This document shows, piece by piece, positions 9,052-33,738 of a stretch of 64,000 nucleotides of DNA (position 1 is the stretch's first letter; each line of letters opens with the position of its first letter). The position numbers and the translations under genes are program-made. The stretch is from a bacterium (lineage in GTDB: Bacteria > Bacillota_I > Bacilli_A > RF39 > UBA660): contig JAUNFS010000003.1 of assembly GCA_030524925.1 (NCBI GenBank), positions 2,146 through 66,145 of the forward strand. The letters run 5' to 3'. Below the pieces are notes generated by a model, which saw nothing but the letters and a program-made list of their open reading frames with translations, was not told the DNA's origin and searched no databases.

Positions 9052-9058
9052 AGGAGCC

Positions 9059-16440: not shown

Positions 16441-16442
16441 TA

Positions 16443-16471
16443 TTGACTAACAACGATGTATGTGATAAAAT
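16443..16471 (+). promoter_or_regulatory. candidate promoter for the 200-aa membrane protein gene
   Basis: TTGACT-N17-TAAAAT. Confidence 0.45.
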
Positions 16472-16506
16472 TAAGTTATCATTAATAATATGATTTTATA
16501 TATGTT

Positions 16507-17109
16507 GTGAGGTGTTTAAAGGTGAAAAAATTCGGTAATATACTAATTGATATTGTATTGGTACTAGCATTTATAATAACTTGTGCTGGTACATTTGCAG
16601 AAAAAAGTGTTGGTTTTGGTGTTGCCACGATAATTATTATTGTATTGTTTATTTTAAATCTTAAAAAAGGTAATCAAGTTGTAGATAGTAAAGAAGTAAA
16701 AGATTTAGATGCTAAATATACAAATAGCAGTTGGCAAAAAATTGGAAGTTATGAAAATGCTTATCTATATATCAACGAAAATGATAAGAAAGTATTAATT
16801 AACAATCACGAATACAATTTTAAAGATATAATTTCTGCCGAAATAATGGAAAATGAAAAAGAACAAACATATACTGCAACAACTCAAAATGCTATATTCA
16901 CAAGGTCTTATAGTAGTGGTTCAAGAACTTATCATTATTGCAGTAAATTACAAGTAAAAATCGTTCTAAATTCAATAACTAGTCCACAAGAATATATTAC
17001 TTTTATAAGTAAAAAGACAAATAAAAATAGTAATAAATATAAAAGTGCTTATGATATGGCACAAAAATTCATATCAACTTTGCAAGTTATTATTAAGAAT
17101 AACCAATAA
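16507..17109 (+). CDS. two-TM membrane protein with C-terminal globular domain (element cargo)
   Basis: Two TM helices, then a ~130-aa soluble domain. Alternative GTG start at 16522 after GAGGTG. No family recognised. Confidence 0.5.
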   Translation: MRCLKVKKFGNILIDIVLVLAFIITCAGTFAEKSVGFGVATIIIIVLFILNLKKGNQVVDSKEVKDLDAKYTNSSWQKIGSYENAYLYINENDKKVLINNHEYNFKDIISAEIMENEKEQTYTATTQNAIFTRSYSSGSRTYHYCSKLQVKIVLNSITSPQEYITFISKKTNKNSNKYKSAYDMAQKFISTLQVIIKNNQ

Positions 17110-17140
17110 ATTAAGTCGTAAAGGCTTAATTTTTTAATTC

Positions 17141-17350
17141 TTATATATAAATGAAAATATATTTATCACTATTGTATTTATTAAAAATATAATCTTGAAG
17201 ATTTGCAATATTATTAAACTTTTTCCCTTTTTCTTCATAATTACTTATTATATACAAATTATTATTTCTAATTATAATGAATACTCCGGGATGCTTTTTA
17301 TCTAAAACTTTACTTTCTATTTTTGATATTCTTCTTTCTAGTGTATTCAT
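17141..17350 (-). CDS. hypothetical small protein (element)
   Basis: 69 aa. ATGA overlap with the upstream HTH gene. Confidence 0.4.
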   Translation of the reverse strand: MNTLERRISKIESKVLDKKHPGVFIIIRNNNLYIISNYEEKGKKFNNIANLQDYIFNKYNSDKYIFIYI

Positions 17351-17730
17351 TTTATATCAAGCCTTTCTTCTATATTATCAATTCTTTTTAATAATTCTAA
17401 TTGTTGATACTGCAAAATTCTATCTAATATAAAAGTAGATGCCTTTAATTGATTATTTTCATTTTCTGCATTATCAAGTATTGATAACAAATTATTTAGA
17501 GCCTTATCGCCTAAAGTATGCAATTTTATTTCTATACTTTGCAAGGCTTGTATTCTTAAATCAATTAATAGTTGTTTGAATACTGGGTCAGTTCGCCATC
17601 TATAAATTGTGTTTTCATCAACTCCAATTTTAGAGGCAACTACTTTGTTATTATCGCCAATTAAAAGTAAAGATAAAGCAGTTTGCTGTTTATCATTTAA
17701 TTTTTTAAAATTCTCTACAAAATTAGTCAT
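17347..17730 (-). CDS. small HTH protein (terminase-small-subunit-like / phBC6A51-type)
   Basis: LLLIGDNNKVVASKIGVDENTIYRWRTDPVFKQLL, an HTH followed by a coiled-coil tail. Confidence 0.5.
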   Translation of the reverse strand: MTNFVENFKKLNDKQQTALSLLLIGDNNKVVASKIGVDENTIYRWRTDPVFKQLLIDLRIQALQSIEIKLHTLGDKALNNLLSILDNAENENNQLKASTFILDRILQYQQLELLKRIDNIEERLDIK

Positions 17731-17784
17731 TTTCTATCATATCCTTTCATTAGTGTATTATTTGTAGAAAATGTAGTTATTGTA

Positions 17785-19521
17785 TTACTTTGTAATAATT
17801 ACATTATCTACACTTTCTACATTTACTACATTCTTTTTAATAGGTATTTTGTAAAAGACTTTTTGTCTTTCACTTTTTCCAGTTAGTTCGTTTTTAACTG
17901 GGTTTGGTGTTGTATAATAACCGATGCCATCATATTTCTTCAATAATGGTTTTATGGGGTCTAACATTGAATTTTTAACTTTATTATCTGCGAGGTTAGA
18001 ATATAATTTTTGCAGTTCTATTCCTAACTCTTTTAAACTACCAGCCCATTTTCCATTATTCTTGTTTACTAAAGTTTTTATAGTATCAACTAAAGGGTTA
18101 TTATTATATTCTTCTAATTCATTTCGCATCACTTTTTCTTCATAAGATGAAATCATCTGCCATTTACAACTTTCTTTATTGAAGTTTAAAATATATTGAT
18201 TTTGGTCTACATCTCTACCAGTAATAGATAAAATAGTTTCTTTATCGTATCTATTTTGTTTATCTAAAACTATTGTTGTATCAGCAGTACCAGTTATACC
18301 ATTTGTTCCGGATACTTTTCCAAAAACATCATTGTCATTGCCTTTTTTAAGATGATGTATTAAAATAATTGCCAAGCCATTTTCATCAGCAAAATCTTTA
18401 ATAGTTCCAACTTCTTTATAATCATTTGCATAATTGTTTTTTCCATTATAATCACTTCTAATTTTTTGAAGTGTATCTATTACTATAACCTTAATATAAG
18501 GTTCTTTTTTTATAATGCTTTTAATCTCATTAATTAAGCCATTTTCTATATCATCACACCTAGTTGCATAAATAAAATTATCTGGTGCTATTTTGCCATC
18601 TAATACCTTATTTAATCTGCTTTTAAGCCTATGTTCGCTATCTTCTAGTGCTAGATATAAGCATCCAGTTTTAAGTGTCTTAAAGCCTAAGAATGGCATA
18701 CCTTTACTAATACTTAAACATAAATCTAAAGCCATCCAACTTTTTCCTATTTTAGGTAAACTGCAAATTAAAGTAAGTCCTTGAGGTATTAAACTATCTA
18801 CATAAAATGTTATTGGTGGTAAATCTTTATCTTGTAATGATTTGGCAGTTGCATATTGAATATTATTTATCTTATCTTTATTTTTAATTTTATTAGTTTC
18901 TTTTTTTAGAGCACTTTTAACAATATTATTTAATTCTGCTTTTTTTAGTTTATCTTCAAAAACAATATTATTAATTATATTTGCTACATCTTTAATATTC
19001 ATTTCCGGATATGTTTCTTTTATTAATAATAGATGCTTATATAAATGGTTGTTTCTAGCATCACCATCAAGCATTCCAGTTAAATTATTTTTTGCTTTAT
19101 ATAATGGATAAAATTGCAATGGTAGTTCTGGTAAATTATCAATATTTAATTCTCTATTCATTTCTCTAGTTTTGCCATTTAATTTAATGACTGCATAGGC
19201 ATTTTTCCCGGTTAAATAATCACATTGAAAGCCTAAAACAGATATTACATCTGTGTTTCTTTTAAAACTATATCCAGTAGGCATTTTATAGTAGTAATGC
19301 TTTCCTTTAGTTGTTTTAACTCTTAAGGTGGGATAGTTTGCATCTATATAATCACATATTATATTTTCATTTATATTGTCATTGTCAAAATCTAAAACAA
19401 TTACATCATCACCAATAATAAGACCAGCATTTTCTAAATTATCAAAAGTAGTTTGATAGTATTGTTGGTTCATTGATTTAATATTAGGTGATTTATCATT
19501 TTTTAGTGGTATAAATTGCAT
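17785..19521 (-). CDS. replication protein: N-terminal Prim-Pol domain fused to RepA/AAA_25-type P-loop ATPase
   Basis: VLDFDND (DxD) and TTKGKHYYYK in the N-domain. Walker A SLPKIGKS. CLYLALEDS. Walker B VIVIDTLQKI. Confidence 0.75.
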   Translation of the reverse strand: MQFIPLKNDKSPNIKSMNQQYYQTTFDNLENAGLIIGDDVIVLDFDNDNINENIICDYIDANYPTLRVKTTKGKHYYYKMPTGYSFKRNTDVISVLGFQCDYLTGKNAYAVIKLNGKTREMNRELNIDNLPELPLQFYPLYKAKNNLTGMLDGDARNNHLYKHLLLIKETYPEMNIKDVANIINNIVFEDKLKKAELNNIVKSALKKETNKIKNKDKINNIQYATAKSLQDKDLPPITFYVDSLIPQGLTLICSLPKIGKSWMALDLCLSISKGMPFLGFKTLKTGCLYLALEDSEHRLKSRLNKVLDGKIAPDNFIYATRCDDIENGLINEIKSIIKKEPYIKVIVIDTLQKIRSDYNGKNNYANDYKEVGTIKDFADENGLAIILIHHLKKGNDNDVFGKVSGTNGITGTADTTIVLDKQNRYDKETILSITGRDVDQNQYILNFNKESCKWQMISSYEEKVMRNELEEYNNNPLVDTIKTLVNKNNGKWAGSLKELGIELQKLYSNLADNKVKNSMLDPIKPLLKKYDGIGYYTTPNPVKNELTGKSERQKVFYKIPIKKNVVNVESVDNVIITK

Positions 19522-19687
19522 CTTTTTTTATCCTTTCTTCATTATTGATTTTTTTCTTCTTTTCATCCTTGCTGGAAAGCCATTTTTTATATTCTTCTTT
19601 GTGATTATCAATATAGGTTGTTACATCATCAACTAAAATGCCAGAGGCAAATTCTTTTATTAGTTCATCACTAATCATAATTTTCAC
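19496..19687 (-). CDS. hypothetical small protein (element)
   Basis: 63 aa, overlaps neighbours on both sides in an operon-like way. Confidence 0.35.
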   Translation of the reverse strand: MKIMISDELIKEFASGILVDDVTTYIDNHKEEYKKWLSSKDEKKKKINNEERIKKDAIYTTKK

Positions 19688-19868
19688 CTGCTTTAATTAA
19701 CTCTTTGGCTTTCTTTTCCCAGAAAGTGGCATTGTGTTTTTTTACTTTATCTGGGTTATTCTTTCGCCAGTTTTTAAAATATAATTTTCTGGCATCATCA
19801 ATTTGCTTAGTTGAATATTTGTTAATAGCATTACTAAATTGTTTTTCATCATTTTTATTATTATTCAT
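19671..19868 (-). CDS. hypothetical small basic protein (element)
   Basis: ATG at 19868 follows AAAGGAGG; the track start 19886 lies upstream of the SD. Confidence 0.4.
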   Translation of the reverse strand: MNNNKNDEKQFSNAINKYSTKQIDDARKLYFKNWRKNNPDKVKKHNATFWEKKAKELIKAGENYD

Positions 19869-19905
19869 ACAAGAGCCTCCTTTCAAATTTTTTTCTTTTA
19901 TTTTC

Positions 19906-19934
19906 TTGCATTTTTTTGAAAAATGATATATTAT
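19906..19934 (+). promoter_or_regulatory. candidate rightward promoter of the element switch region
   Basis: TTGCAT-N17-TATTAT. Confidence 0.4.
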
Positions 19935-19938
19935 ATAA

Positions 19939-19968
19939 ATGTAAAAGTTATTTCCTTTTCTTTTACAT
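19939..19968. promoter_or_regulatory. 9-bp inverted repeat ATGTAAAAG-N12-CTTTTACAT, candidate operator
   Basis: Perfect arms, located between the two face-to-face candidate promoters. Confidence 0.35.
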
Positions 19969-19988
19969 AAGTGAAGTTTAACACAGAA

Positions 19989-20016
19989 ATTATAGAAAAG
20001 GGATAAAAATATACAA
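19989..20016 (-). promoter_or_regulatory. candidate leftward promoter for the replication operon
   Basis: Minus strand TTGTAT-N16-TATAAT. Confidence 0.4.
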
Positions 20017-20070
20017 AAAAAAATATTTGTTAATTTTGATAAATAAATTTCACAAAAAGGAAGGATAATT

Positions 20071-20658
20071 ATGGAAAGAAAAGAGAGAGAAAAAAATCAT
20101 ATTGACCCAGAAGTTATTAAAGAAAATGTTAATAATACAAAATATACAAATGACATTAAGCAAATGTTATTGTGCTTTTCATTAGAACTTAATAGGTTGC
20201 TATATAAAAAAGAAATAAGTCAAGAAGATTTTTCTAAAATAACAAAAATAGGTCAAACAAGTATTTCTAAATATAGAAATGGTACTGCACTACCAAAACA
20301 AGAAAATATTGATATTATTGCAAAGGCTCTTGGAGTATCAAGTGAATATTTAGTTGGTAAAAGCAAAACAAAAGACTATTCATATAATCAATTAAATAAA
20401 TTATTTGGCTTTAATGATGAAACAATTAATAATCTTTCAAGTTGTTTTAACAAAGACTATCTAAATAATATGTTTGGTGGTGAATTAGATAGTATTAATT
20501 ACTTTCTTGAAAGACTAAAAAATTATGTTGATGCCAAAAATGAATATAAAAAAGAAAAAAAGGAATTAAACAAGGCTTGGGATAAAAATAAAATTGATGA
20601 GGCTAAATATTATTTAACAAATTCACTAATTGATTTAATAGATGAAAATTTAAAATAG
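20071..20658 (+). CDS. XRE-family HTH regulator (repressor-like) with C-terminal extension
   Basis: ISQEDFSKITKIGQTSISKYRNGTALPKQENIDIIAKALGVSSEYLVG. AGGAAGGA SD. Confidence 0.75.
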   Translation: MERKEREKNHIDPEVIKENVNNTKYTNDIKQMLLCFSLELNRLLYKKEISQEDFSKITKIGQTSISKYRNGTALPKQENIDIIAKALGVSSEYLVGKSKTKDYSYNQLNKLFGFNDETINNLSSCFNKDYLNNMFGGELDSINYFLERLKNYVDAKNEYKKEKKELNKAWDKNKIDEAKYYLTNSLIDLIDENLK

Positions 20659-20673
20659 AAAGGAGTTTATATT

Positions 20674-22218
20674 ATGAATATTGCACTTTATTTAAGATAT
20701 AGTTCACAAAATCAAACAGAGGCATCTATTGAGGGACAAAGAGAGGTTTGCCAAGAATATGCCAGAGTAAAAAAATATAATATTATATGCGAATATATTG
20801 ACAGAGCCCACTCGGCTACAACAGATAATCGCCCAGAATTCAAAAGAATGATTAAAGATAGTTCTAAAGGTTTATTTGATGCAGTAGTAGTTTATCAATT
20901 TGATAGATTTGCAAGAAATAGATTAGATAGTCAAAAATATAAACAACTTTTAAAGAAAAATAATGTAATGGTTTTATCTGCTCGTGAGGAAATACCAGAA
21001 GATGCTTCTGGTATACTTATGGAAAGTGTTTTAGAGGGGATGGCAGAATATTATAGTGTTGAGTTAGGACAAAAGGTTTCTCGTGGAATGAAAACAAATG
21101 CCAGTAAATGCTATTATAATGGTGGTTCAGTTCCTTTAGGTTTAAAACTAGAGGTTGTAGAAAAAATACAAACATCTGGTAAAATAAAAGAAAAAAAGAA
21201 ATTTGTTATTGATGAAGAAAAAGCCTCTATTATAAAAACTATATTTGAAAAATTTAACAAAGGCGAAAGTATGATTAAAATTATAAATTATCTAAATAAA
21301 TTAGGCATTAAAACAAGCAAAAATAAGCCATTTAATAAAAATAGTATGAGAAGAATATTAGAAAATAAAAAGTATATTGGTATCTATTCTTATGATGGTG
21401 TAGATACTCCAGATGCTATTCCAAGAATAATTAGTGATGATTTATTTTATAAAGTACAAGATAAACTTGGCAAATATAGATGTGCTCCCGGTAGACAAAA
21501 AGCCAGAACGGAATATCTTTTAACAACTAAATTATTCTGTGGTTATTGTGAAAATATGATGGTTGGTGTTGCCGGTACTTCTAAAAATGGTACATTGCAT
21601 AATTACTATACTTGTAAGGGCAGAAAAACTTGTGGATGCAAAAAAGCCAATATCAAGAAAATATACATTGAGGATATAGTTGTAGATATGGCAAGAGAGG
21701 TCTTGACAGATAAAGAAATACCTATTATTGCTAAAAATGTGGTTGAATATGCAGAAAGCCACGATAACAGCGATTTAAAATATTTGCAAGATAAATTAAA
21801 AAATTTAAACAAACAAAATGAAAGTTTAACTAATAGTTTGAAATATTGTGAAGTTGATGCTGTAAGAAAAACAATTATTGATGAAATGACAAAAATTGAA
21901 AATGAAAAAATAAATACTCTTGAGGCAATTAAAGAAGAAGAAAAAAATCATACTTATATTGAATATGACAAAGTAGTATATTTTCTAGAACAAATGAGAA
22001 AAGGCGATATAAACGATATGAGGTATAGACAAAGACTTATAAATTGCTTTATTAATAAGGTGTTCTTATGGGATGATAAAATTATTACTACTTTTAATAT
22101 TAAAAAAAGTGATATTTCTACTAAATTGCCTAATTTAAAAGACTTGGAGTGTTCGTTTGAAGTTTCAAATGGTGCACCATTGATAAATTTGTTCGGACTA
22201 TTCGGACTTTATATATAG
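20674..22218 (+). CDS. large serine recombinase (resolvase/invertase N-domain, recombinase domain, zinc ribbon, coiled coil)
   Basis: IALYLRYSSQNQ...IEGQ catalytic Ser region. VVVYQFDRFARN. CGYC...YYTCKGRKTCGC zinc ribbon. 514 aa. Confidence 0.9.
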   Translation: MNIALYLRYSSQNQTEASIEGQREVCQEYARVKKYNIICEYIDRAHSATTDNRPEFKRMIKDSSKGLFDAVVVYQFDRFARNRLDSQKYKQLLKKNNVMVLSAREEIPEDASGILMESVLEGMAEYYSVELGQKVSRGMKTNASKCYYNGGSVPLGLKLEVVEKIQTSGKIKEKKKFVIDEEKASIIKTIFEKFNKGESMIKIINYLNKLGIKTSKNKPFNKNSMRRILENKKYIGIYSYDGVDTPDAIPRIISDDLFYKVQDKLGKYRCAPGRQKARTEYLLTTKLFCGYCENMMVGVAGTSKNGTLHNYYTCKGRKTCGCKKANIKKIYIEDIVVDMAREVLTDKEIPIIAKNVVEYAESHDNSDLKYLQDKLKNLNKQNESLTNSLKYCEVDAVRKTIIDEMTKIENEKINTLEAIKEEEKNHTYIEYDKVVYFLEQMRKGDINDMRYRQRLINCFINKVFLWDDKIITTFNIKKSDISTKLPNLKDLECSFEVSNGAPLINLFGLFGLYI

Positions 22219-22245
22219 AATCAATCGCATGATTGATTTTTTTTT
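22219..22245 (+). terminator. rho-independent terminator after the recombinase gene
   Basis: AATCAATC-GCAT-GATTGATT followed by T7. Confidence 0.6.
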
Positions 22246-22266
22246 ATAAAACGAAAAAATCATGAA

Positions 22267-22479
22267 ATGGTTGAATTATATTATAATATAAGACAGACAA
22301 TAAATGAGCTTATTGATGAGTATAATTTAGAAAAATCACAAAACGAAATAATTAAATCTTTTTCTAATAAACTTACAAAACAATTTGGGCAAGGTTTTAG
22401 TGTTCCAAGTTTAAAGAAGATGAAAAAATTTTATCAAGTATTTAACGGTGGTTCCACACTGTGGAACCACTTGAAATAA
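22267..22479 (+). pseudogene. internal fragment of a DUF1016 (YhcG-like PDDEXK nuclease) gene
   Basis: ELYYNIRQTI...IIKSFSNKLTKQFGQGFSVPSLKKMKKFYQVF resembles the LYWEIG...LSKDL..EFG.GFS..NL..MR.FY N-domain. The nuclease domain is missing. Confidence 0.4.
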
Positions 22480-22722
22480 AAATCACAAATTCGGGAAAAT
22501 ATGAATAATTAAGTAGCATTAAATTATTGCTACTTTTTCTATTCTTTGGTAAAAAATGTATAGTGATTGATTTTTTTGTTTATGATAATTTATAATAACA
22601 AGTGCAACACCAGCTGATGTAATTGAAATTTAACTTAGAAATAAAGTGATTTTTTCTTTTTTATTTGTACTTTGATTTACTCAGCATTTAATATATGTTA
22701 TATTATAATCAAGGGAGGTCAA

Positions 22723-23061: not shown

Positions 23062-23394
23062 TTAATTACAGTTCCAAGGTTCTAAGACACAATCTTGGCA
23101 TTTTTGGAAATTACTTGCTGGCATTTCACGATAACCATTAATTGTACTAAATAACCACATAACGATTGTTGGTACAAAGAAAATTAATACACCGGCAATA
23201 GCACGATACATTAAACTCTTACTAGCCTTCTTAATGTCATCTTCTTTACCACCTACTACGGCTTTTCCTAAATCAAACATTCCATATCCAATAATTAATA
23301 ATGGAATAGCTATTTTAAATACTGTTAGTATCCAACCTACAAATCCTAAAACGTCTGCTGCTTGATCACAAAAACCAGTTATATTCATACTCAC
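23062..23394 (-). CDS. 110-aa two-TM protein, VirB2/TrbC-pilin-like topology, Cys-rich tail
   Basis: TM1 VLGFVGWILTVFKIAIPLLIIGYGMF. Basic loop DLGKAVVGGKEDDIKKASKSLMYR. TM2 AIAGVLIFFVPTIVMWLF. Tail FQKCQDCVLEPWNCN. Confidence 0.5.
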   Translation of the reverse strand: MSMNITGFCDQAADVLGFVGWILTVFKIAIPLLIIGYGMFDLGKAVVGGKEDDIKKASKSLMYRAIAGVLIFFVPTIVMWLFSTINGYREMPASNFQKCQDCVLEPWNCN

Positions 23395-23446
23395 ATCTCC
23401 CTTACATACTTAAATTCTATATGAATTTATGGTAATTGTCAACAAA

Positions 23447-24562
23447 TTATTTAAATATACCAAAAATTCTACTGCCTTCTTGTCTACTAAAACCTAGTTT
23501 TACAAGAAGTCTATCTACTGCTAACAATCTATCTGCCCTGTCGTTAATGACTGGCATGTTATAGAAGACTTTAAATTTTGTTTCATATTCAAAATTTGTT
23601 AGTTCTTCATCTTTGATAGCGCTTTGATTTAATATTATTTTTCCATCTTTGACTTTTTCACGTAAATTGTTATCTTTTTTTAAAGCTTTATTTAAACTAA
23701 TGATACCTGGATTAACTAAGTATAGTATATCCGTACATAGTTGTTTTTCTGGTAAATCATTTAAATCTATTAATACAATATCAATATTTCTAAGTGCATT
23801 TATTTTGAATCTTAATTCTTCTACTGATGTACAAAAAGAAATATCTTGATCATTAAAGTAGATAGAATCTTGTTTAAACATTTCAAAAGCAATTACTTTA
23901 TAATTGGCTTTCAATTGTTTTAACATCATGTGCATTAGAGTTGTTGCACCAGCATGGTCTGTGACATTTTGAAGACCAATGATTCTAGCTCTAACTTTAA
24001 TTTGTTCTTCTTCTCTAACATAGTCTACATTACTAAATACGTTAGGATTAGTAAATGCAGGTCTATATTCATCATTATTAAGATTTACATTACTATTTGG
24101 ATTAGCAATGTATGATTGATTACCAAAAGAATTTGGTGAAGCACTTACAGTTTGATTCATCATATTTTGATTTTGATAAGATGATTCACTTAAATACTTT
24201 TTAACATTATCTAATGTATTTGGATGATTTAATAAATAATTTATTCCAGCAGCATTTCTAGTAAAGTTATAATAACCGTTTTCAACTAAATATCTTAGAT
24301 AATTATTACTACTGACAAGTTCACTATCATTAAGAAGTATAATTACTTTTGATGCTGGAAAGAAACTTAAAAAGTTTAAAACCTCTTTAATATCAAAATA
24401 ATTCTTAATTGCTGTTATATCAATTATTGCTTTACTATATATAAAGTTAGATAACTGACTTTCTAGCATATCTCTAGTAAACTCACCACTTAAAGTTTTA
24501 ATGGTATCTAAATTAGCACTATCAATGATAATTCCATTAAGATTTTTTATTGCAATATACAT
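23447..24562 (-). CDS. TadZ/CpaE-like protein: receiver-like N-domain, Asn/Gln-rich linker, MinD/ParA-like domain with degenerate P-loop
   Basis: N-domain IIDITAIKN...KVIILLND...LVENGYYNF. Linker SYQNQNMMNQTVSASPNSFGNQSYIANPNSNVNLNN. IIGLQNVTDHAGATT replaces xKGGxGKT. VLIDLN is Walker-B-like. Confidence 0.5.
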   Translation of the reverse strand: MYIAIKNLNGIIIDSANLDTIKTLSGEFTRDMLESQLSNFIYSKAIIDITAIKNYFDIKEVLNFLSFFPASKVIILLNDSELVSSNNYLRYLVENGYYNFTRNAAGINYLLNHPNTLDNVKKYLSESSYQNQNMMNQTVSASPNSFGNQSYIANPNSNVNLNNDEYRPAFTNPNVFSNVDYVREEEQIKVRARIIGLQNVTDHAGATTLMHMMLKQLKANYKVIAFEMFKQDSIYFNDQDISFCTSVEELRFKINALRNIDIVLIDLNDLPEKQLCTDILYLVNPGIISLNKALKKDNNLREKVKDGKIILNQSAIKDEELTNFEYETKFKVFYNMPVINDRADRLLAVDRLLVKLGFSRQEGSRIFGIFK

Positions 24563-24570: not shown

Positions 24571-25047
24571 CTAATTCCATCCTGGTACTTCATCTTTGGC
24601 AAAGTATATAGGTTTAGTTTCACCTGATATAGGAAATGTAAATATTTCACCTAATATTGGTAGATCTACTCTAAAAAAGACGGTTACTTTGTAATAACTT
24701 TTTTTGATATTACCACTATCGTCAACGGTTTTAGCAACGCAATATCTATATTTGGTTGCATCTGCGGCATAGGGATCAAACCCGCTTACAAGAGTGCCGT
24801 CACCTTGTTCAGTTAGATTTTTAGGACATTTGCTATATACTAAATAACCAACTGTTGATAAATAATCTTTAATTTCTTGTTGACTATCATCACTAAGTCC
24901 CTCTTTTTTTTCAATGATATTTACGATACCATTTTTAACCTTAAATGCCTTAGAGTAATTAATTGAAAGCGCTAAAAAGCTTGAAAATAAAACTATAAAA
25001 ACTAAAACAATTGTTAAAAGCCAAGTTCCACCAATTGCTTCTCTCAT
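24571..25047 (-). CDS. TadE-like pseudopilin candidate (158 aa)
   Basis: MREAIGG, hydrophobic TWLLTIVLVFIVLFSSFLAL, then SINYSKAFKVKNGIVN, which resembles the post-TM block of TadE-family proteins. Confidence 0.5.
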   Translation of the reverse strand: MREAIGGTWLLTIVLVFIVLFSSFLALSINYSKAFKVKNGIVNIIEKKEGLSDDSQQEIKDYLSTVGYLVYSKCPKNLTEQGDGTLVSGFDPYAADATKYRYCVAKTVDDSGNIKKSYYKVTVFFRVDLPILGEIFTFPISGETKPIYFAKDEVPGWN

Positions 25048-25062
25048 TTATATTATTGCTTT

Positions 25063-25311
25063 CTAATTAGTGTCCTTATTTGGGCATTGAACAGATTGTG
25101 GATTAGTGCAATTGTCATCTTGACAATAAAGGCAACTACACATTTTTGCTCCTGACGTACAATTACAACTAAAGGCTTGTGTACACTTTGTACTCCTTGT
25201 GATATTTGACTTAATTGATGGCCATATTAATGTAGTAAATACTACTCCTATTGCGGCGATTGCTACTACTGCTACTGCAGTCATACTTAATTCGCCTGAT
25301 GCTTCTTTCAT
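25063..25311 (-). CDS. 82-aa Flp/pilin-like protein with Cys-rich C-terminal module
   Basis: MKEASGE, then LSMTAVAVVAIAAIGVVFTTLIW, then 8 Cys in the last 40 residues. Strong SD TAGGAGGA. Own promoter. Confidence 0.55.
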   Translation of the reverse strand: MKEASGELSMTAVAVVAIAAIGVVFTTLIWPSIKSNITRSTKCTQAFSCNCTSGAKMCSCLYCQDDNCTNPQSVQCPNKDTN

Positions 25312-25336
25312 TTTTTATTCCTCCTATCTTAAAATA

Positions 25337-25365
25337 ATTATAATATAGTTTAACTTCTAAATCAA
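25337..25365 (-). promoter_or_regulatory. consensus-like sigma-A promoter for the 82-aa pilin candidate
   Basis: Minus strand TTGATT-N17-TATAAT, about 25 nt upstream of the SD. Confidence 0.55.
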
Positions 25366-25372
25366 TATTTAT

Positions 25373-25404
25373 GTAAAAAAAAGATAACAATTTCTTGTTA
25401 TCTT
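25373..25404 (-). terminator. rho-independent terminator/attenuator after the 153-aa gene
   Basis: Perfect 10-bp stem AAGATAACAA/TTGTTATCTT with a 4-nt loop, followed on the minus strand by T8. The stop codon lies in the stem. Confidence 0.6.
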
Positions 25405-25859
25405 GAACTAATACCTGTACGATCTGGGAAGTATGTACTTGGCTTATTCTTACTATTATGGGCATCTTCTAAAATGCCATCAATTTTGTTTACTACAGCA
25501 TAATTTTCTTGGGTACTCTCAACGTTGAATGAGCCAGTCACGGTTGCTACTTTAACACTTACTTTTGGTGGTGCTTCATATATATCATAGAAAGATATTT
25601 TGTAGTTTTTATTAATATTTATGGTTTCTGAAAATCTTCTAATAAAGTTTTCTACAAATTTTTCTTTAATAATTCTTATTTCCCCGTACTTACGATAATG
25701 AGCTAAATCTAATGAATCTCCTAGAGCTGCATCTGTTATTTCTTTAATTAAATATACGTCTTGTTCGTTAGTGGTTGAATAGTTTTGTAAGATTAGCATT
25801 ATTCCTAGAATACCTAGTCCAAAAACTATAATCCAATATCCCCATACACTTTCTTTCAT
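25398..25859 (-). CDS. pseudopilin-like protein (153 aa)
   Basis: MKESVWG, hydrophobic YWIIVFGLGILGIMLIL, then a soluble domain. AGGAGGTG SD. Confidence 0.5.
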   Translation of the reverse strand: MKESVWGYWIIVFGLGILGIMLILQNYSTTNEQDVYLIKEITDAALGDSLDLAHYRKYGEIRIIKEKFVENFIRRFSETININKNYKISFYDIYEAPPKVSVKVATVTGSFNVESTQENYAVVNKIDGILEDAHNSKNKPSTYFPDRTGISSR

Positions 25860-25874: not shown

Positions 25875-28800
25875 CTATGGATAGATAATACTATCATCGT
25901 CAATATTTACGTCTGGATAGCCGTCTGGCAATAACTGTCTCATTGTACCTACTTTAAATTGATTATCGCTAGCAAAATAGTATTTGTACTTTTGTCTACC
26001 AGATGTATTACTTGCATATCTTGTAACAAAGCTACTTATACATTCTTTGCCATCACTGTTACAGCTAAATAAGCCGCCTGAATAGCCACTGCTCCAGTCA
26101 TAGTAGTTACTATTCTTATTATATTTCTTGATTTCTTGCATTGTTTTAGTATCTAAATTAAATACATATTCAAGAGTTTCGGAATCTGGTGTATCGTCAA
26201 ACATTCCGTCTTTTAAACCAATTTGCTTGATTCGGCTTTCAGCTGCCTCGCCTTTGGCATTTGACCAGTTATCACCTAAATCTCCACTATCTTTACGATT
26301 ATTTGGATCCATGTTGCTAGGATTTATAGTTCTATAAATGTATTCTGGATAGAAATCTTCGCTTTCTCTTCCATCGCAATCAGGTCCTTGACAGCACTCC
26401 GCTCCAAAACAACAAGTAGGACAATCACGGTCGTATAGCACCTCTCTATTACAATATACACATAAACTTTCAAATACGTTTCCTTCTGCTAATTTTTGAT
26501 TTATACGATATTGTACATTAGATTCATTTTTACTTTTACCCTTAGGCTCTATTTCTAAGTGGCCATTATTTTCAATTGTAAACCAAGTTCTATATTTACC
26601 TTGATAATTTGTTATTTGTACATTAAATACATAACCTATTTCTAAAACATCAGGATAACTATAACTTTGCTGGTCAGTAATATATAAACCGCTTGGTACT
26701 AAGCTATAGTAGCCAACTGTTGGTTTATAGTATAGGTCAGCTTTACCAGTTTTTTCACTGTCAGCTTCTCCTCTATCTGTTTCCTCAACATTTTCATAAG
26801 CTGTGTTATAACCTTTTGAATAATCATTTGCTCCTAATTTTCCATAAAGAGGGCCTTCATGCTTACCGCTTGTATCTTTGTAATTTACATTTGTACTATT
26901 TGTTGTTGCTCCAGATGTATTTGGAAGTGTACTTACATGTGTCCAATATTTGCCATCTGATTCTACAGATTTAACAAACTCTACTTCTTGCTCTACAACT
27001 TTAGTATTACCACTTACTGAATCGTAGTATTGTTGCGTATATGTAAATGATAGATCAGGATCTAAAATATATTTCCATGAATTTTTAAAATTACTATTAG
27101 CTTTTTGACAAGAAGTCTTTTTTTCTTCTAGGCCTTGACGTTTTTCGTATGCTTTAACATATGCGTTATGAGCACCTACAACATTTGTTGATGGTTTTGG
27201 TGACACGGCGCAAATTTGTGATGTTGTCCATGAAACAGTTTCTTTTCCTCTTACTCCACTATTGTAAACACCATAATAATAATCATCTTGGGTTCTACCT
27301 GTATATGTAATATATTTTTCTTGTGACCAGCCTAAGCAATGATTATCTTCAGGGTCACGACCACCAGAACAATACCAACAACTGGAATTCATTGGGTGAC
27401 TTGCAGAATCATCTATTGCATCTTGCAGATTAGCTTCTTTTTGCCATGCATCAAATTTTGCCTTTTCATCTCTTACAGCAGCAAGATAATCTCTTTGCCA
27501 TACGTCGTAAGCTGTATAGAAGAAGGCAGTGATTTCACCTTTAACTTCTGGCTGAGAATATTGTCCATCGGAGTCTTTAGTAAATACGAAGAATCTACCA
27601 CTTGTAGATGCAGTTGTCATTGGGTAAATCATGTGATTATTCTCTGTTGTATAAAGTTTGCAATATTCGTTTGTTTCAATATTATTATTGTTATTGAATG
27701 TTTTATCACGCCAGTATTGCATTGCATTTTTTGTATAGTTTTGAAAGCTATCTAAAGTTGCTTGATTATTCATAACTTTATCTTCATATTTTTTTAATTT
27801 GCTCAATAATCCATCACGATTTACTTGTTCTACAGATGAATCTGATGGCATTTGGTTTACTGTTGAGCCATCTGACGCACATTCGCCTTGACAATCCATT
27901 ATTAAATTAACATGGTCTTGATCTTTGCATTGTTCATTATAAATTTCTTCTTGAGATTTTGAAAGATTGAAATTTTCAAGTCCTTCACAACATCCTGCGT
28001 TAATGTATTCTTCTATAGTTGCGTTTTTATTCCCTAATTTTAATTGGCCATTTTCATATTTACATACATTTGGTAGAGTGATGTCTAAGTCAAATGTTAG
28101 TTTGTGATGCATGCTGTCTAAGTAGCCAACCATTCTTTGGTTTGATTCATTTGGGCTTTCTACTAATAAGCCTACGCCTGATGCTCCAAATGGGAAGAAA
28201 TATTTATAGTCAATTTCAACTGTTATTTTAGGATTTGAAGCTATTTCTTCATAACTTCCGTATACTTCTAGTTCAAATGTATCATCGCCATTTAACAAGT
28301 CTGTTCCTTCAGAAATGTTTGCTTTGCACTCACCTTTTGAACAGCTTACTTTTTCAAAGGTTATTTCTGGGTTTAGATATGCAAGGCCATAACTTGAGAT
28401 TGCATTTTTAATATCCTCAATACCTTCAACTTTTACTTTTACTTTTTTATGGTAGCCGTATGATGAACCAGGAACATCTTCTGGAGTTCCGTCTACGACA
28501 AATTCTATATTATAATCTTTGGTTTCTGCTGTATAAATTCCTCCGTAGCCACTTAAAAATGTTCTACAGAAAGCACTTGAGCCACCTGCTAGTTTACCAG
28601 CACAGTAGATTGCTTGAGATGCTTGGTAGTTTTGGTCAGTCTTAAGTGTTGGAAATTTAGGATATTTAGGTTCTAAACCTTCAAAAGCGTTAGCTCCATT
28701 AATATATTTTTCAATGCTTTCCCATTCAGCTCCACCACTTTTGCCATAACCTAGGCCGGCATTAAAAAATCTTACTGCGGTATTGATATCAATATAATCT

Positions 28801-29156
28801 ACAGAATTTTTTTCTGCCAAATAGATTTGATGCATCTTTATAAGTCCAGCATCATAACCACCATTATCAACTGATAACTCTTTACCATAATATAATGTTT
28901 TAGGAGTGTTTCTGTTTGGGTCAATACAATATAAGTCAACTTCAGTGCCTTCAATTGTTGTTTTGTGATGCCAGCTAGTTGTTGTATATCCATCAGTAAA
29001 TACATAACCAGTAGTTTCTGTTGGGTTATCTGTAAGAGGAGTTTCTAATAAACAGTAGCCATTAGCTGCTGAAGGTCTGCCATCACATATACCATTTGAG
29101 GCATCAACATTTATAGTTACAAATAAAAGAGATATTAATAATAGATACTTCTTCAT
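25875..29156 (-). CDS. 1093-aa secreted Cys-rich protein, N-terminal thioester-domain-like region, no cell-wall sorting signal
   Basis: Signal peptide MKKYLLLISLLFVTINVDAS. LYCIDPNRNTP...NSVDYIDINTAVRFF parallels the adhesin motif at 12089-12223. About 29 Cys, including CPTCCFGAECCQGPDC. C-terminus lacks LPxTG and a TM. Confidence 0.6.
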   Translation of the reverse strand: MKKYLLLISLLFVTINVDASNGICDGRPSAANGYCLLETPLTDNPTETTGYVFTDGYTTTSWHHKTTIEGTEVDLYCIDPNRNTPKTLYYGKELSVDNGGYDAGLIKMHQIYLAEKNSVDYIDINTAVRFFNAGLGYGKSGGAEWESIEKYINGANAFEGLEPKYPKFPTLKTDQNYQASQAIYCAGKLAGGSSAFCRTFLSGYGGIYTAETKDYNIEFVVDGTPEDVPGSSYGYHKKVKVKVEGIEDIKNAISSYGLAYLNPEITFEKVSCSKGECKANISEGTDLLNGDDTFELEVYGSYEEIASNPKITVEIDYKYFFPFGASGVGLLVESPNESNQRMVGYLDSMHHKLTFDLDITLPNVCKYENGQLKLGNKNATIEEYINAGCCEGLENFNLSKSQEEIYNEQCKDQDHVNLIMDCQGECASDGSTVNQMPSDSSVEQVNRDGLLSKLKKYEDKVMNNQATLDSFQNYTKNAMQYWRDKTFNNNNNIETNEYCKLYTTENNHMIYPMTTASTSGRFFVFTKDSDGQYSQPEVKGEITAFFYTAYDVWQRDYLAAVRDEKAKFDAWQKEANLQDAIDDSASHPMNSSCWYCSGGRDPEDNHCLGWSQEKYITYTGRTQDDYYYGVYNSGVRGKETVSWTTSQICAVSPKPSTNVVGAHNAYVKAYEKRQGLEEKKTSCQKANSNFKNSWKYILDPDLSFTYTQQYYDSVSGNTKVVEQEVEFVKSVESDGKYWTHVSTLPNTSGATTNSTNVNYKDTSGKHEGPLYGKLGANDYSKGYNTAYENVEETDRGEADSEKTGKADLYYKPTVGYYSLVPSGLYITDQQSYSYPDVLEIGYVFNVQITNYQGKYRTWFTIENNGHLEIEPKGKSKNESNVQYRINQKLAEGNVFESLCVYCNREVLYDRDCPTCCFGAECCQGPDCDGRESEDFYPEYIYRTINPSNMDPNNRKDSGDLGDNWSNAKGEAAESRIKQIGLKDGMFDDTPDSETLEYVFNLDTKTMQEIKKYNKNSNYYDWSSGYSGGLFSCNSDGKECISSFVTRYASNTSGRQKYKYYFASDNQFKVGTMRQLLPDGYPDVNIDDDSIIYP

Positions 29157-29854
29157 TATAATACACGCTTCTTTCTATAAATTATCACACCTACTACACC
29201 ACCAGCTATTAAAACTGTTCCCCCAATTATGTATAGATAATTTTCTTTTAAGAACTTTAAAAACTTATTTTCTTTAGTTGGATCAGCATCGCCGTCTTTG
29301 CCATTTTCTATCTCTGTTATTTTATTTACTATTTGAGTAATATCCATGTCTACTTCTTTAGTAACAAAAGTTTGACAGTATGGTAAGTCTTCATGCCCTT
29401 TACATACTAAATATTCTGAATAAGGATTATATTTTGGTTTAGTAAATGAAAAACTTCTTAATCTTTTTCTACCGCAATTTTCAGTGCTTGAATATACAAT
29501 AATGTCATAAGATATGATATTATCTTGATCTTCTGATGTTATTGTATATTTACCATTTTCAGTATCACTGTAATATATTGATTTTTTTTCTTTGGTTTTA
29601 GAGTCAGTTACTTCTAATGATAAATTTTCAGTTATATTATAAAAAGATATAATAAAGTTATAACTTATTTGCTCGTACTCGCCACCGCCTTCACTAGTAA
29701 CTTTATTTTTGATTTCTTTTAATTCATAATTTGCTTGTACTAGTGCTGCTTCTTTATTTAGATTTGCTTGTTCTTTGTATGAACATTCAGCGGCATAAAC
29801 GTTAACATAAAAAAACAATAAAGGTATTAATATTTTAAAATATTTCACATCCAT
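29156..29854 (-). CDS. signal-peptide protein with C-terminal TM anchor (about 230 aa)
   Basis: KYFKILIPLLFFYVNVYA-AEC signal. C-terminal YIIGGTVLIAGGVVGVIIYRKKRVL. Start is ambiguous (ATG 29854 or GTG 29848 after AGGTGA). Stop overlaps the next start (ATGA). Confidence 0.55.
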   Translation of the reverse strand: MDVKYFKILIPLLFFYVNVYAAECSYKEQANLNKEAALVQANYELKEIKNKVTSEGGGEYEQISYNFIISFYNITENLSLEVTDSKTKEKKSIYYSDTENGKYTITSEDQDNIISYDIIVYSSTENCGRKRLRSFSFTKPKYNPYSEYLVCKGHEDLPYCQTFVTKEVDMDITQIVNKITEIENGKDGDADPTKENKFLKFLKENYLYIIGGTVLIAGGVVGVIIYRKKRVL

Positions 29855-29870
29855 CACCTATCCTATGACA

Positions 29871-29899
29871 AGTATAGCATAACTAAGTGTCATTTTCAA
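29871..29899 (-). promoter_or_regulatory. candidate promoter of the seven-gene operon
   Basis: Minus strand TTGAAA-N17-TATACT. Confidence 0.5.
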
Positions 29900-29955
29900 A
29901 CTATTTTAAGGTGTTAAACGATGAATTTTTATGGTATATTAGTGTTGGTGAAATA

Positions 29956-30510
29956 ATGAAAAAGTATAAAACTATTAAAATCTTATTTATATTTTTAGTT
30001 GCTTCTAGTATTTCAAATAAATATCCTTTATTTGGTGGATTATTTGGAGTATTATTAATTTACTTTTTAAATTTTAAAGATGTTAATAAAAAACTTAGTT
30101 TTAGTAAGAGAAATTTAAAGTATTTACTTTTTGGATCACTTGTTTGTTTGTTATTTTTTATTAAGTATTTTATAGGAAATAGTGAGCATGATAGTTTTTT
30201 AATTTCATTAATAAATGCGAGAGCTTGGTATTATTTTATATATTTGGTAATACTTTCCCCTATTTTGGAAGAGCTTACTTTTAGATATGGGTTTGATACT
30301 ATTAAAAATGAGTATTTGTATTTAATAATTAGTTCTTTATTATTTAGTGTTATTAGAGTTAATAGTTTATCTGAATATTTATATTTTATTATTGCTTTTA
30401 TATTTAGTTTACTTTTAGGTTATGTTTATAGGAAAAGTGATGATATTAAGTTACCAATATGTTTTCATATGTTATATAATTTGTTATTTTATTTAATGGT
30501 GGTGTTCTAA
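29956..30510 (+). CDS. CPBP family intramembrane protease
   Basis: LEELTFRYGF and CFHMLYNL motifs, polytopic. ATG 29956 follows GGTGAA; the track start 29887 is unlikely. Confidence 0.7.
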   Translation: MKKYKTIKILFIFLVASSISNKYPLFGGLFGVLLIYFLNFKDVNKKLSFSKRNLKYLLFGSLVCLLFFIKYFIGNSEHDSFLISLINARAWYYFIYLVILSPILEELTFRYGFDTIKNEYLYLIISSLLFSVIRVNSLSEYLYFIIAFIFSLLLGYVYRKSDDIKLPICFHMLYNLLFYLMVVF

Positions 30511-31376: not shown

Positions 31377-31607
31377 ATGTATTACAATTATCAAAATTAT
31401 CCTAATATGAGTGGTGAAAGACAATTTTGGTTTCCTTTTTTACTTGGAGGACTTGGTGGAGCTGCTGTAGTATCTGCTTCTAGACCAAGACCAGTGTATG
31501 CTGTAAATAATATGCCATACCAAGGTAATTATCAAATGCCACCTACTATGCCACCTTATGGATATAATTACTATGGAGGATATAATTATTATCCACCTTA
31601 TAGATAA
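31377..31607 (+). CDS. 76-aa Tyr/Pro/Asn/Gly-rich protein with one central hydrophobic segment
   Basis: GAGAGGAG SD. MYYNYQNYPN...FWFPFLLGGLGGAAVV...PPYGYNYYGGYNYYPPYR. Confidence 0.45.
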   Translation: MYYNYQNYPNMSGERQFWFPFLLGGLGGAAVVSASRPRPVYAVNNMPYQGNYQMPPTMPPYGYNYYGGYNYYPPYR

Positions 31608-32931: not shown

Positions 32932-33687
32932 GATTTTACTGTATTTAAGTATGTAATAGTCAATTGTTGGGATAGTATTTATTAGAAATTCGTAGTTATT
33001 AAAATACATAAATATTTCAGATGGATTTCCTAGCGAATAGTATCCTCTTGGGGCATCATAAGCTTGTTCTAGGGTGTCGTCAAAATATTTTATGAAGTAT
33101 TTATTAGCTTTATTTATTTTATTTAGATATGATTTAGCTTTTTTATCATTACCCATTTTATAGTATAGAGCAAATAATGGAAATAACATTTCTAGAGATT
33201 CTTCGGGATACTTTTTGTAAAATTTTAGCATTTCGCTTTCTTCTTCTAAACAAGCAAGTAAGGCCATTTTTAAATATCTAGTACCAGTATTGTCATTTTC
33301 ATTTAATCTTAGTATTTCATCGCATACACTAAGGGCTTGTTTTATTTTGCCATCATTTGCTAGGTAAGATGCTTTTAAATAAAGGGCTCTAATGTAGGGT
33401 CTTGTTTCAAAAACACCGTAAAATATTCCTATATAATCTTTTTCAAAGTACCCTTCTTTTGTTAATTTGTTTTTTTCTTTTTCTATTGAATCATTTAGGA
33501 GTTTATCTCTTTTTAAGGGATTTTCTTCCATACGAATTTGAAAAAGTGTAGCATCTAAGAAATCCGGGCAAATTTTAAGGGCCTCTTTTGATAATCTTAG
33601 AGCTTCTTTCTTGGTTTTAGCATATTCTGCTGTTTCTAATAAGTCAAATGCTTGAGCTTTAGGACTTATTTCATAGTCTGTTTTCAT
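32926..33687 (-). CDS. TPR-like helical repeat protein
   Basis: Helical repeats with A/L/Y spacing (ALRLSKEALKICPDF, ALYLKASYLANDGKIKQALSVCDEILRLN). Confidence 0.5.
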   Translation of the reverse strand: MKTDYEISPKAQAFDLLETAEYAKTKKEALRLSKEALKICPDFLDATLFQIRMEENPLKRDKLLNDSIEKEKNKLTKEGYFEKDYIGIFYGVFETRPYIRALYLKASYLANDGKIKQALSVCDEILRLNENDNTGTRYLKMALLACLEEESEMLKFYKKYPEESLEMLFPLFALYYKMGNDKKAKSYLNKINKANKYFIKYFDDTLEQAYDAPRGYYSLGNPSEIFMYFNNYEFLINTIPTIDYYILKYSKIS

Positions 33688-33738
33688 TATAATACCTCTT
33701 TTCTACTTATTTAATAACCAATCAATTTTTTGAATTTA

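Follow-up and report, generated by a model that had tools for sequence, protein, structure and literature searches.

Are three consecutive small proteins of an uncultured gut bacterium, each beginning with the same short leader before a hydrophobic helix, the pilins of a divergent type IV filament? Their genes lie in a 64-kb stretch of contig JAUNFS010000003.1 (positions 2,146 to 66,145; assembly GCA_030524925.1, Bacillota_I, RF39), the whole of which we call the window. We tentatively favour, at a probability of roughly 45%, that the three are pilin-like subunits of a divergent, Tad-like type IV filament module within a larger envelope machine of uncultured gut Bacilli. In the form that fits best, this reading gives the subunits a class-III-like (prepilin-type) signal and ties their module to a type IV secretion system (T4SS) like that of the integrative and conjugative elements (ICEs) of Mollicutes. 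Beneath it lie plain observations: the N-terminal motif is conserved, its gene context recurs in relatives and has been rearranged, and the genes are under purifying selection.

The shared start of three small proteins

All three open reading frames (ORFs) set out in a preliminary description of the window, with the leaders and hydrophobic segments quoted there, proved exact on the minus strand (aa, amino acids):

25398–25859, minus strand: 153-aa DUF5411 protein (PF17424), leader MKESVWG (MKESVWGYWIIVFGLGILGIMLIL) and a transmembrane (TM) helix; closes the upstream operon
25063–25311, minus strand: 82-aa protein, leader MKEASG (MKEASGELSMTAVAVVAIAAIGVVF), a hydrophobic helix ending in a conserved W-P, and a Cys-rich tail; candidate major (Flp-like) subunit
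24571–25047, minus strand: 158-aa protein, leader MREAIG(G), here MREAIGG (MREAIGGTWLLTIVLVFIVLFSSFLAL), and a TM helix; candidate pseudopilin-like subunit

Each gene begins at the earliest possible start codon downstream of an in-frame stop. We gathered 95 related loci (L numbers below) by contig look-ups and by a one-genome-per-species scan with a profile of the 158-aa family, and mapped them by phmmer. Of the 66 genes of the window, M[KR]E[AS] opens these three and no others; elsewhere the motif is found in 0 of 1311 other genes in 93 related loci, even when an internal Met within the first 40 residues is allowed. For both counts, genes were taken as non-overlapping long ORFs.

In 35 diverse members of the 158-aa family, M1, E3, I5, G6 and W9 are invariant, and residues 1–50 are the best conserved part of the protein. 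The 82-aa family, with 84 unique sequences from related loci, has M1, A4, E7, L8 and T11 conserved at 1.00 and G6 at 0.92, and averages 0.79 over the near-invariant residues 1–32 against 0.46 in the tail. DUF5411 N-termini are somewhat looser: after clustering at 50%, K/R2 occurs in 126 of 145 representatives, E3 in 94, W6 in 118 and G7 in 110, with Ala at position 7 in a further 12 and Ser in 8, and an ‘MKWSF’ subgroup is without the Glu and often without the Gly. At the invariant residues of the 82-aa family, synonymous codons are interchanged freely, which places selection on the protein and rules out a nucleotide-level cause, RNA or regulatory, of the N-terminal conservation.

The three families can be aligned over residues 1–21 only (BLASTP; hhalign, E = 0.0038). 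Global homology or paralogy of the three proteins is rejected, since neither method aligns anything beyond that point. A module shared by residues 1–21 of otherwise unrelated proteins is the pattern of the pilins of a single system.

The preliminary description saw in these starts the layout of a class III (prepilin) signal, and here it agrees with the published definition: a short hydrophilic leader ending in Gly or Ala, then 20–25 hydrophobic residues, with a Glu at position 5 (Glu5) that is frequent but optional (PMC10191384). Most members of the three families have a hydrophilic leader that ends in Gly or Ala. Some 20–25 mainly hydrophobic residues follow directly, and AlphaFold2 (AF2) models place helices at residues 5–48 of the 158-aa protein and 3–55 of the DUF5411 protein.

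Of the three proteins, the 153-aa one belongs to a described family, matching Pfam DUF5411 at 184.1 bits (cutoff 30) over residues 1–132. We found 744 DUF5411 homologues; an exhaustive profile search gave 636 representatives, in nearly all of which the domain begins at residue 1, and in other species C-terminal extensions reach 1224 aa. Flg_new repeats occur in the extensions of L094 and L095, the two extended members for which we retrieved the locus. Proteins of the cell surface are known to carry Flg_new domains, and on this sequence evidence the extensions argue for an N-in, C-out topology and for a modular, displayed DUF5411 subunit.

The 82-aa and 158-aa proteins, and a 371-aa protein encoded next to them, have no match in Pfam, NCBIfam or PHROGs, nor does the L006 homologue of the 82-aa protein match Pfam. 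The Cys count of the 82-aa tail is always even (4, 6 or 8 in the 84 unique sequences). Not one of 369 homologues of the 158-aa protein carries a Pfam domain. Its AF2 model (predicted local distance difference test, pLDDT, 80.6; predicted template modelling score, pTM, 0.70) has helices at 5–48 and 53–66 followed by a five-stranded sheet, so that the modelled order of secondary structure is that of a pilin lollipop.

Comparison with L013 and L010 shows purifying selection on all seven genes of the window cluster, with ratios of nonsynonymous to synonymous substitution (dN/dS) of 0.01–0.2, except for the 82-aa gene at ~ 0.5. The DUF5411 gene stands at 0.01–0.03 and the 158-aa gene at 0.13–0.16, and the 0.49–0.57 of the 82-aa gene is the cluster’s highest.

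Gene context and its rearrangement in relatives

The three genes do not form one operon, because the 153-aa gene ends in a terminator-like hairpin with a run of eight T and a promoter-like site of its own serves the 82-aa gene. The features around them are as follows.

25375–25402, minus strand: terminator-like hairpin GATAACAA-gaaa-TTGTTATC, then T8, overlapping the DUF5411 stop codon (read from the sequence)
25320–25365, minus strand: promoter-like TTGATT-17-TATAAT (25365..25337; 10 of 12 matches) and ribosome-binding site AGGAGG (25325..25320) for the 82-aa gene
29156–29857, minus strand: 233-aa protein with a signal peptide and a C-terminal TM anchor ending RKKRVL; opens the operon that the DUF5411 gene closes
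25875–29156, minus strand: 1093-aa secreted Cys-rich protein, conserved upstream partner of DUF5411
23447–24562, minus strand: 371-aa protein without a predicted TM segment, with a degenerate P-loop-like block IIGLQNVTDHAGATTL; in a TadZ-like position
23062–23394, minus strand: 110-aa two-TM VirB2-like (T4SS_pilin) protein with a C-terminal C-x2-C-x6-C; own promoter-like site
29887–30510, plus strand: divergent CPBP (Rce1-like) intramembrane protease, PF02517 at 55 bits

The hairpin was not caught in a consensus scan because its stem is AT-rich; a similar hairpin and T-run also lie 3' of the DUF5411 gene in L001. Ribosome-binding sites of AGGAGG type stand 8–9 nt 5' of the 153-aa and 82-aa genes, and the 158-aa gene has a weak one. 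An identical TTGATT / TATAAT / AGGAGG layout precedes the 82-aa gene of L006, and a BLAST match between the window and L006 (95%, 82 nt) takes in the -10 hexamer, the ribosome-binding site and ~ 50 nt of the gene.

A homologue of the 233-aa protein is encoded 5' of the DUF5411 gene in most DUF5411-bearing loci (undetected in L061 and L080). Its family matches are limited to weak ones of the C-terminal sorting-signal type, and its dN/dS is 0.07–0.11 against L013 and L010. The 1093-aa protein (dN/dS 0.2) has no family match and is 34% identical, over its full length, to a 1134-aa protein of L001. In more than 80 loci, the 371-aa gene (dN/dS 0.06–0.08) is the invariable neighbour 3' of the 158-aa gene. 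The 110-aa protein (dN/dS 0.05) is a borderline match to PF18895, at 26.0 bits for a cutoff of 26.6 (E = 9.5e-6), with paralogues in relatives at 21–23 bits; the promoter-like site of its gene, at 23442..23414, has 11 of 12 matches.

Related loci show three main arrangements of these genes. In ten distant loci (for example L068, L071, L074, L080 and L085) they form one contiguous cluster, which opens with the 233-aa protein, a large secreted protein, DUF5411, a CpaB-like protein, an ATPase of the T2SSE family and two polytopic proteins of 297 and 264 aa. The middle of the cluster holds one or two copies each of the 82-aa and 158-aa genes, the 371-aa gene and one or more VirB2-like pilin genes, and its end VirB6-like, PrgI/VirB3-like, TraC-like, VirB4-like and hydrolase genes. 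The 82-aa gene, duplicated in some, lies directly 3' of the second polytopic-protein gene in these ten clusters, and the two copies of the 158-aa gene are paralogues.

In nearer relatives of the window the cluster is split in two. Locus A has RodA, Metallophos and CPBP genes and, divergently from them, the genes for the 233-aa protein, the large protein, DUF5411, CpaB, the ATPase and the two polytopic proteins. Locus B adjoins the replication-initiation genes dnaB and dnaI; it begins with large Cys-rich surface proteins that have Cadherin-like domain matches, and continues with VirB2-like, 82-aa, 158-aa and 371-aa genes, further VirB2-like genes, VirB6 to VirB4, and a hydrolase gene. In the third arrangement, that of the window, L010 and L013 (UMGS1372), the front of locus A is joined to the middle of locus B.

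That the three genes are neighbours is thus peculiar to this lineage, in which two halves of a larger machine cluster have come to lie side by side. They meet at a clean junction: DUF5411 retains its terminator, and the 82-aa gene its promoter and AGGAGG. An assembly chimera at the DUF5411 / 82-aa junction is ruled out, as the independent assemblies L010 and L013 have the identical junction. Since the window has no ATPase gene and its DUF5411 operon adjoins the 82-aa gene, the genes for any motors must lie elsewhere; when we sought the ATPase of this lineage by protein search and contig look-ups, no match could be assigned to its genome.

A core of the cluster also stands alone. In loci of the CAG:582 type, a five-gene block (158-aa paralogue, 82-aa, 158-aa, 371-aa and 110-aa genes) is flanked by housekeeping genes, which suggests that the invariant core is 82-158-371-110 and that motors can be encoded in trans. 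In L066 (9139–11879) and L070 (8369–11114) the block follows dnaB and dnaI and its 158-aa paralogue starts MRDSINGLW; no T4SS or ATPase genes lie within 9 kb of the core block there, so the window is not the sole lineage with subunit genes apart from the motor. A plasmid or conjugative-plasmid origin of the 158-aa and 371-aa genes is rejected, there being no tblastn match to either among 72,556 plasmids. Host records are labelled as uncultured Tenericutes, Bacilli, Mollicutes or Erysipelotrichaceae, among them Firmicutes bacterium CAG:582; a few are given as Bacteroidota (Muribaculaceae, Phocaeicola vulgatus), perhaps through errors of binning or labelling.

What machine do the relatives encode beside the subunits? 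Their ATPase matches Pfam T2SSE at 98 bits, and CpaF is its best match in the PDB (1e-18), followed by FlaI and VirB11 (5e-15). The best NCBIfam match is VirB11 at 115 bits, and every NCBIfam match falls below its cutoff. On sequence, the ATPase is placed in the CpaF/FlaI/VirB11 group, with no firmer assignment. The CpaB-like protein matches TIGR03177 at 9e-13 and 48 bits, below the cutoff of 71, and Pfam RcpC weakly. A TadB/TadC identity of the 297-aa and 264-aa proteins was considered and rejected, as they have no database match and no detectable paralogy to each other. The ATPase (L001, 11457–12584, and homologues P0241–P0360) is 79–98% identical, mostly 80–96%, in its top 120 matches, and the pilin-like genes reach only ~ 50–65% within their own best 120. 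Its identity, far above that of its neighbours, points to an unusually strong constraint on the motor.

The other half of the machine resembles a mobile-element T4SS. The VirB4 of the relatives matches the Mbov_0397 family at E = 2e-108, and their VirB6 the MMCAP2_0566 family at E = 9e-15. Mbov_0397 is the single fused VirB4 of Mycoplasma ICEs; in L006 (15926–18567) and L008 (15054–17701), PrgI-, TraC- and VirB4-like ORFs correspond to its parts 2–79, 99–281 and 294–891. The VirB6-like protein matches a family of the Mycoplasma mycoides ICE, and from both matches we take the T4SS half to be Mollicutes-ICE-like. In the relatives this half is chromosomal and syntenic beside dnaB and dnaI.

Cys-rich extracellular parts with regular patterns recur among these proteins: in the 82-aa tail, the VirB2-like proteins and the 1093-aa protein (window 25063–25311, 23062–23394 and 25875–29156; also L006, L008 and L068). 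VirB2-like proteins end in C-x2-C-x5-6-C and have one further N-terminal Cys. Just upstream in L068 is a membrane-anchored protein that is thioredoxin-like by eye. The Cys patterns suggest disulfide-stabilised surface structures in an anaerobe.

Proposed pilin-like subunits and the alternatives

The conserved N-terminus with a varying C-terminus, the gene duplications and the association with a T2SSE ATPase and CpaB lead us to favour the view that the proteins are pilins or minor pilins of one type IV filament system. If so, M-[KR]-E-[SA]-x-x-G and the hydrophobic alpha-1 helix would insert each protein with a cytoplasmic N-terminus and an external C-terminus, a prepilin-type peptidase with its gene elsewhere would remove the leader after Gly6 or Gly7, and a filament would assemble from the resulting subunits. 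The shared helix would be the assembly module, with C-terminal parts that differ between subunits. The Flp-like subunit, abundant, fast-evolving and stabilised by disulfides, would be the 82-aa protein; its own promoter, strong ribosome-binding site, duplication, highest dN/dS and even Cys count support it as a filament subunit. The 158-aa protein may be a pseudopilin-like minor subunit, and DUF5411 a modular minor subunit that bears large C-terminal extensions in other species.

Much weighs against this interpretation, beginning with the signal itself. Instead of Glu, position +5 holds Thr in the 82-aa protein, Leu in the 158-aa protein (for either cleavage site) and Val in the 153-aa protein. 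The 82-aa family has an invariant Glu at +1, directly after the Gly, and the post-Gly sequence of the 82-aa protein in the window, ELSMTA, contains no G/XXXXEY. The preliminary description was therefore right that the canonical G/FTLxE and Flp residues are missing. It also proposed conservation of the leader and its Gly in homologues as a test: the leader and a small end residue are conserved, and the Gly is not invariant. It is replaced by Ser in 6 and Glu in 1 of the 84 sequences of the 82-aa family, by Asn in a paralogue subgroup of the 158-aa family, and, in roughly one DUF5411 representative in four, by A, S, T, I or L. Strong conservation extends to the leader residues themselves, an unusual trait in a peptide that is simply cut off.

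Tests of membership in pilin families give no help. Pfam N_methyl has no match to the three proteins at E ≤ 1, nor to the 35 members of the 158-aa family at E ≤ 10, and Pfam finds no Flp/Fap pilin (PF04964) in the 82-aa protein. A resemblance of the post-TM block of the 158-aa protein to TadE, proposed earlier, fell away when 0 of the 35 family members matched TadE (PF07811) at E ≤ 10. TadE, Flp or pilin membership is rejected, with no match in Pfam, NCBIfam or PHROGs. The DUF5411 model is poor (pLDDT 60.7; helices 3–55 and 61–79, unreliable beyond residue 95), and a Foldseek search of the 158-aa model against the PDB returned nothing at E ≤ 0.001, its top hits being phage coat proteins at E ~ 0.3.

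The machinery is a further difficulty. As the preliminary description had it, there is no A24 peptidase gene nearby: Pfam finds none in the 64-kb window, and a crude GxGD[..]K motif scan of 1.55 Mb around the 95 clusters gave no A24 or tadV candidate. A canonical Gram-positive tad operon begins with tadV (PMC12786226). The window has no ATPase, CpaB, platform or VirB4 genes (tblastn, Pfam), and in most lineages the 82-aa and 158-aa genes stand with the VirB4 genes, not with the ATPase. That ATPase is as close to VirB11 as to CpaF. The 297-aa and 264-aa proteins, in the position of TadB/TadC, match nothing in Pfam, NCBIfam or the PDB, and for the 371-aa protein neither the single sequence nor a 28-sequence profile found a TadZ/ParA/MinD match in the PDB.

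Could the proteins instead be uncleaved, bitopic scaffold proteins, stationary parts whose seven-residue N-terminus is a cytoplasmic docking peptide for the 371-aa protein or the ATPase? PilN, which binds PilM, is a precedent for a docking N-terminus in the cytoplasm. M-K/R-E-S/A and the W/G are conserved more tightly than a disposable leader needs, the TM-less 371-aa protein is invariably encoded 3' of the 158-aa gene, and a scaffold would go with the lack of a prepilin peptidase in the window and around the 95 clusters and with the lack of pilin hidden Markov model (HMM) or fold matches. However, seven residues are very short for a docking tail. The 82-aa protein looks exposed and abundant, given its own promoter, strong ribosome-binding site, variable tail, dN/dS of 0.5 and duplications, and long DUF5411 extensions, with Flg_new in the two that were checked, better suit a displayed subunit than a basal scaffold. 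We consider a scaffold role rather unlikely, though it deserves serious attention.

A hybrid machine is unlikely as well, and somewhat more so. Here a CpaF/VirB11-type ATPase module and a Mollicutes-ICE-type VirB4 system would share pilin-like subunits that bear a new seven-residue N-terminal signature without Glu5 and are either unprocessed, as leaderless pilins, or cut by a protease other than A24.

A third possibility is that the subunits are pilin-like and leaderless. They would remain unprocessed, and Glu3 (Glu7 in the 82-aa protein) together with the free N-terminus would neutralise charge in the manner of Glu5 and the N-terminal amine. The extreme N-terminus is indeed conserved like that of a mature pilin and unlike a leader: the 158-aa family keeps E3 almost without exception and the 82-aa family E7 throughout, and the Gly is not strictly required, as the Ser, Asn, Ala, Thr and Ile variants show. 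Such subunits would also explain why the cluster has no peptidase, the motif scan having found no A24 gene in or near the 95 clusters. But Lys/Arg2 would then be buried in the filament core, about a third of DUF5411 representatives are without E3, and the proposal is pure inference. We know of no precedent for such pilins and regard them as improbable.

Cleavage of the leaders by a protease other than A24, with the divergent CPBP protease (29887–30510) as candidate, we hold to be most improbable. The preliminary description had raised this as speculation, and so it stays. The CPBP gene is a divergent neighbour, head-to-head with the 233-aa gene in the window, L001–L005, L010, L013 and the distant L074. 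However, synteny is as strong for the Metallophos and RodA genes and may be mere conserved neighbourhood, and no CPBP gene lies beside the cluster in L068, L085 or L095. The window also holds a second CPBP gene elsewhere (4257–4952), beside a CPBP-like ORF (4949–5629). NCBIfam matches of the divergent CPBP are to MrtJ-type proteases of C-terminal sorting signals and, since the 233-aa protein has such an anchor, it is the likelier substrate.

Ordinary Sec signal peptides or signal anchors, their shared start reflecting a preference for A-rich codons after AUG in a low-GC genome, can be set aside with little hesitation: MK- starts are common in a genome of 28% GC, but M[KR]E[AS] begins none of the 1311 other genes, the motif reaches residue 9 and is conserved across families at < 50% identity, synonymous codons vary at invariant residues, and there is no evident A-x-A type cleavage site after the helix.

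The 233-aa C-terminus, with its Gly-rich TM segment and RKKRVL, resembles a C-terminal sorting signal and gives weak matches of the LPXTG-anchor type. The match of the divergent CPBP to MrtJ-type proteases is at E = 6e-10, below cutoff. Judged by these likenesses, the two form a possible protease-substrate pair, unrelated to the N-terminal leaders. At 4257–5629, two polytopic genes lie in tandem; the first (4257–4952) is CPBP/Rce1-like at 57.7 bits, and the second (4949–5629) has no Pfam match and is similar to it in size and hydrophobicity.

Elsewhere the window shows signs of recent insertion. A 7.4-kb element (15195–22563) lies directly 3' of tRNA-Leu(tag) (15110–15194) and is not at that site in UMGS1372 (L013). 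It encodes a large serine recombinase (20674–22218), a helix-turn-helix (HTH) regulator, a primase/AAA_25 protein (17785–19521), a small HTH protein and AbiTii (15283–15969), and a 9-bp repeat, TTTGTTTAT, stands at both its ends (15196 and 22575). Genes for an MqsR-like toxin and an HTH/MqsA-SocA (Panacea) antitoxin occupy 33123–35139, a segment missing from the otherwise collinear L013 and therefore a second recent insertion. A sortase-dependent pilus or adhesin locus lies at 7432–12406, where the gene for a 614-aa SpaA-fold protein with a C-terminal anchor is flanked by two sortase genes (9886–10578; and 7432–9051, for a 539-aa sortase-domain protein). Between the Metallophos and RodA genes, 31377–31607 encodes a 76-aa protein rich in Tyr, Pro, Asn and Gly (MYYNYQNYPN...YYGGYNYYPPYR); relatives have a gene of similar size (73–75 aa) in its place, likened to it by size and position only. 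CotE, of the outer spore coat, is encoded at 62118–62630, and SpoIVA in L004 (18898–20376). From these genes, organisms often labelled Tenericutes or Mollicutes appear to be spore formers.

Known systems compared

If the three proteins are pilin-like, they define a new N-terminal signature, a short conserved leader M-[KR]-E-[SA]-x-x-G without Glu5, that current pilin detectors miss, and Pfam DUF5411 gains a role, as do two unannotated families that have hundreds of members in gut metagenomes of humans and animals. As the motif scan found no prepilin peptidase in any cluster, processing can be tested directly. Of possibly greater weight is the wider context: in uncultured Bacilli labelled Tenericutes or Mollicutes, an ATPase module of type-IV-filament type and a relaxase-less, Mollicutes-ICE-like T4SS are coupled in one vertically inherited chromosomal cluster, which suggests a conserved surface or DNA-handling apparatus in an abundant uncultured gut lineage. 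Neither a T2SSE-ATPase/CpaB module fused to such a T4SS nor the N-terminal signature turned up in our literature search.

DUF5411 has been met before beside similar motors. In predicted operons of the Clostridia Roseburia, Ruminococcus and Eubacterium, it co-occurs with CpaF and PilC/GspF (PMC9523054). As here, PF17424 is associated there with a CpaF ATPase and a large adhesin-like protein, a likeness to which the Flg_new repeats on some of our DUF5411 proteins may be added. Unlike here, no role for DUF5411, no N-terminal motif, no 82-, 158- or 371-aa families and no link to VirB4 are reported for those operons.

A Tad-like cluster of TANB77 comprises CpaB, TadZ/CpaE, TadA, TadB/C and six one-TM ‘pilin-like’ proteins, which could not be assigned by sequence or structure search and were named from their context (PMC11680825). 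TANB77 is likewise an uncultured Gram-positive gut lineage with small one-TM proteins, which we set beside the present families by description only. It differs in belonging to the Clostridia, and neither a shared N-terminal signature nor T4SS linkage is described for it.

The T4SS half has its closest parallels in Patescibacteria, which carry a chromosomal, relaxase-less T4SS of MPF_FATA type with arrays of VirB2-like (PF18895) pilins (PMC12102498), and in the Mycoplasma ICEs. The relatives of the window share with these the VirB2-like arrays, VirB6, VirB3/PrgI-like and VirB4 proteins and a cell-wall hydrolase, and their cluster too is chromosomal. In contrast, a T2SSE-family ATPase with CpaB, or the present N-terminal motif, is unreported in those systems, and the window itself carries the VirB2-like gene only.

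The ComGC-type competence pilins of Firmicutes begin MNEKG/FTLVE, a very short leader with one Lys and one Glu, and have positive charges after the helix. This charge pattern is like that of the 82-aa and 158-aa proteins, whose charges are therefore compatible with a pilin topology. Given the ComGC-like charges and the DUF5411 C-terminal extensions, we set aside the positive-inside rule as an argument against that topology. Unlike the present proteins, ComGC has the FTLxE signature and the ComC peptidase.

So, which known system do the three proteins most resemble? Compared with Flp and TadE/TadF of Tad (type IVc) systems, they differ in lacking G/XXXXEY, Glu5 and any Flp or TadE HMM match, in a leader that is conserved and only 6–7 residues long, and in the Cys-rich tail of the 82-aa protein. 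No cluster has a tadV gene (by motif scan), and homology to TadB, TadC and TadZ is undetectable. The likenesses lie in architecture and gene order. Both sets consist of small subunits with a short leader ending in Gly before a hydrophobic helix, and both have one short major subunit, sometimes duplicated, with two larger minor ones here. In relatives their genes come just after those for a CpaF-type ATPase and the two polytopic proteins, and a CpaB-like gene stands upstream of all these. The three proteins fail sequence-based membership tests for Flp and TadE/TadF, yet by this analogy it is those subunits that they probably work most like.

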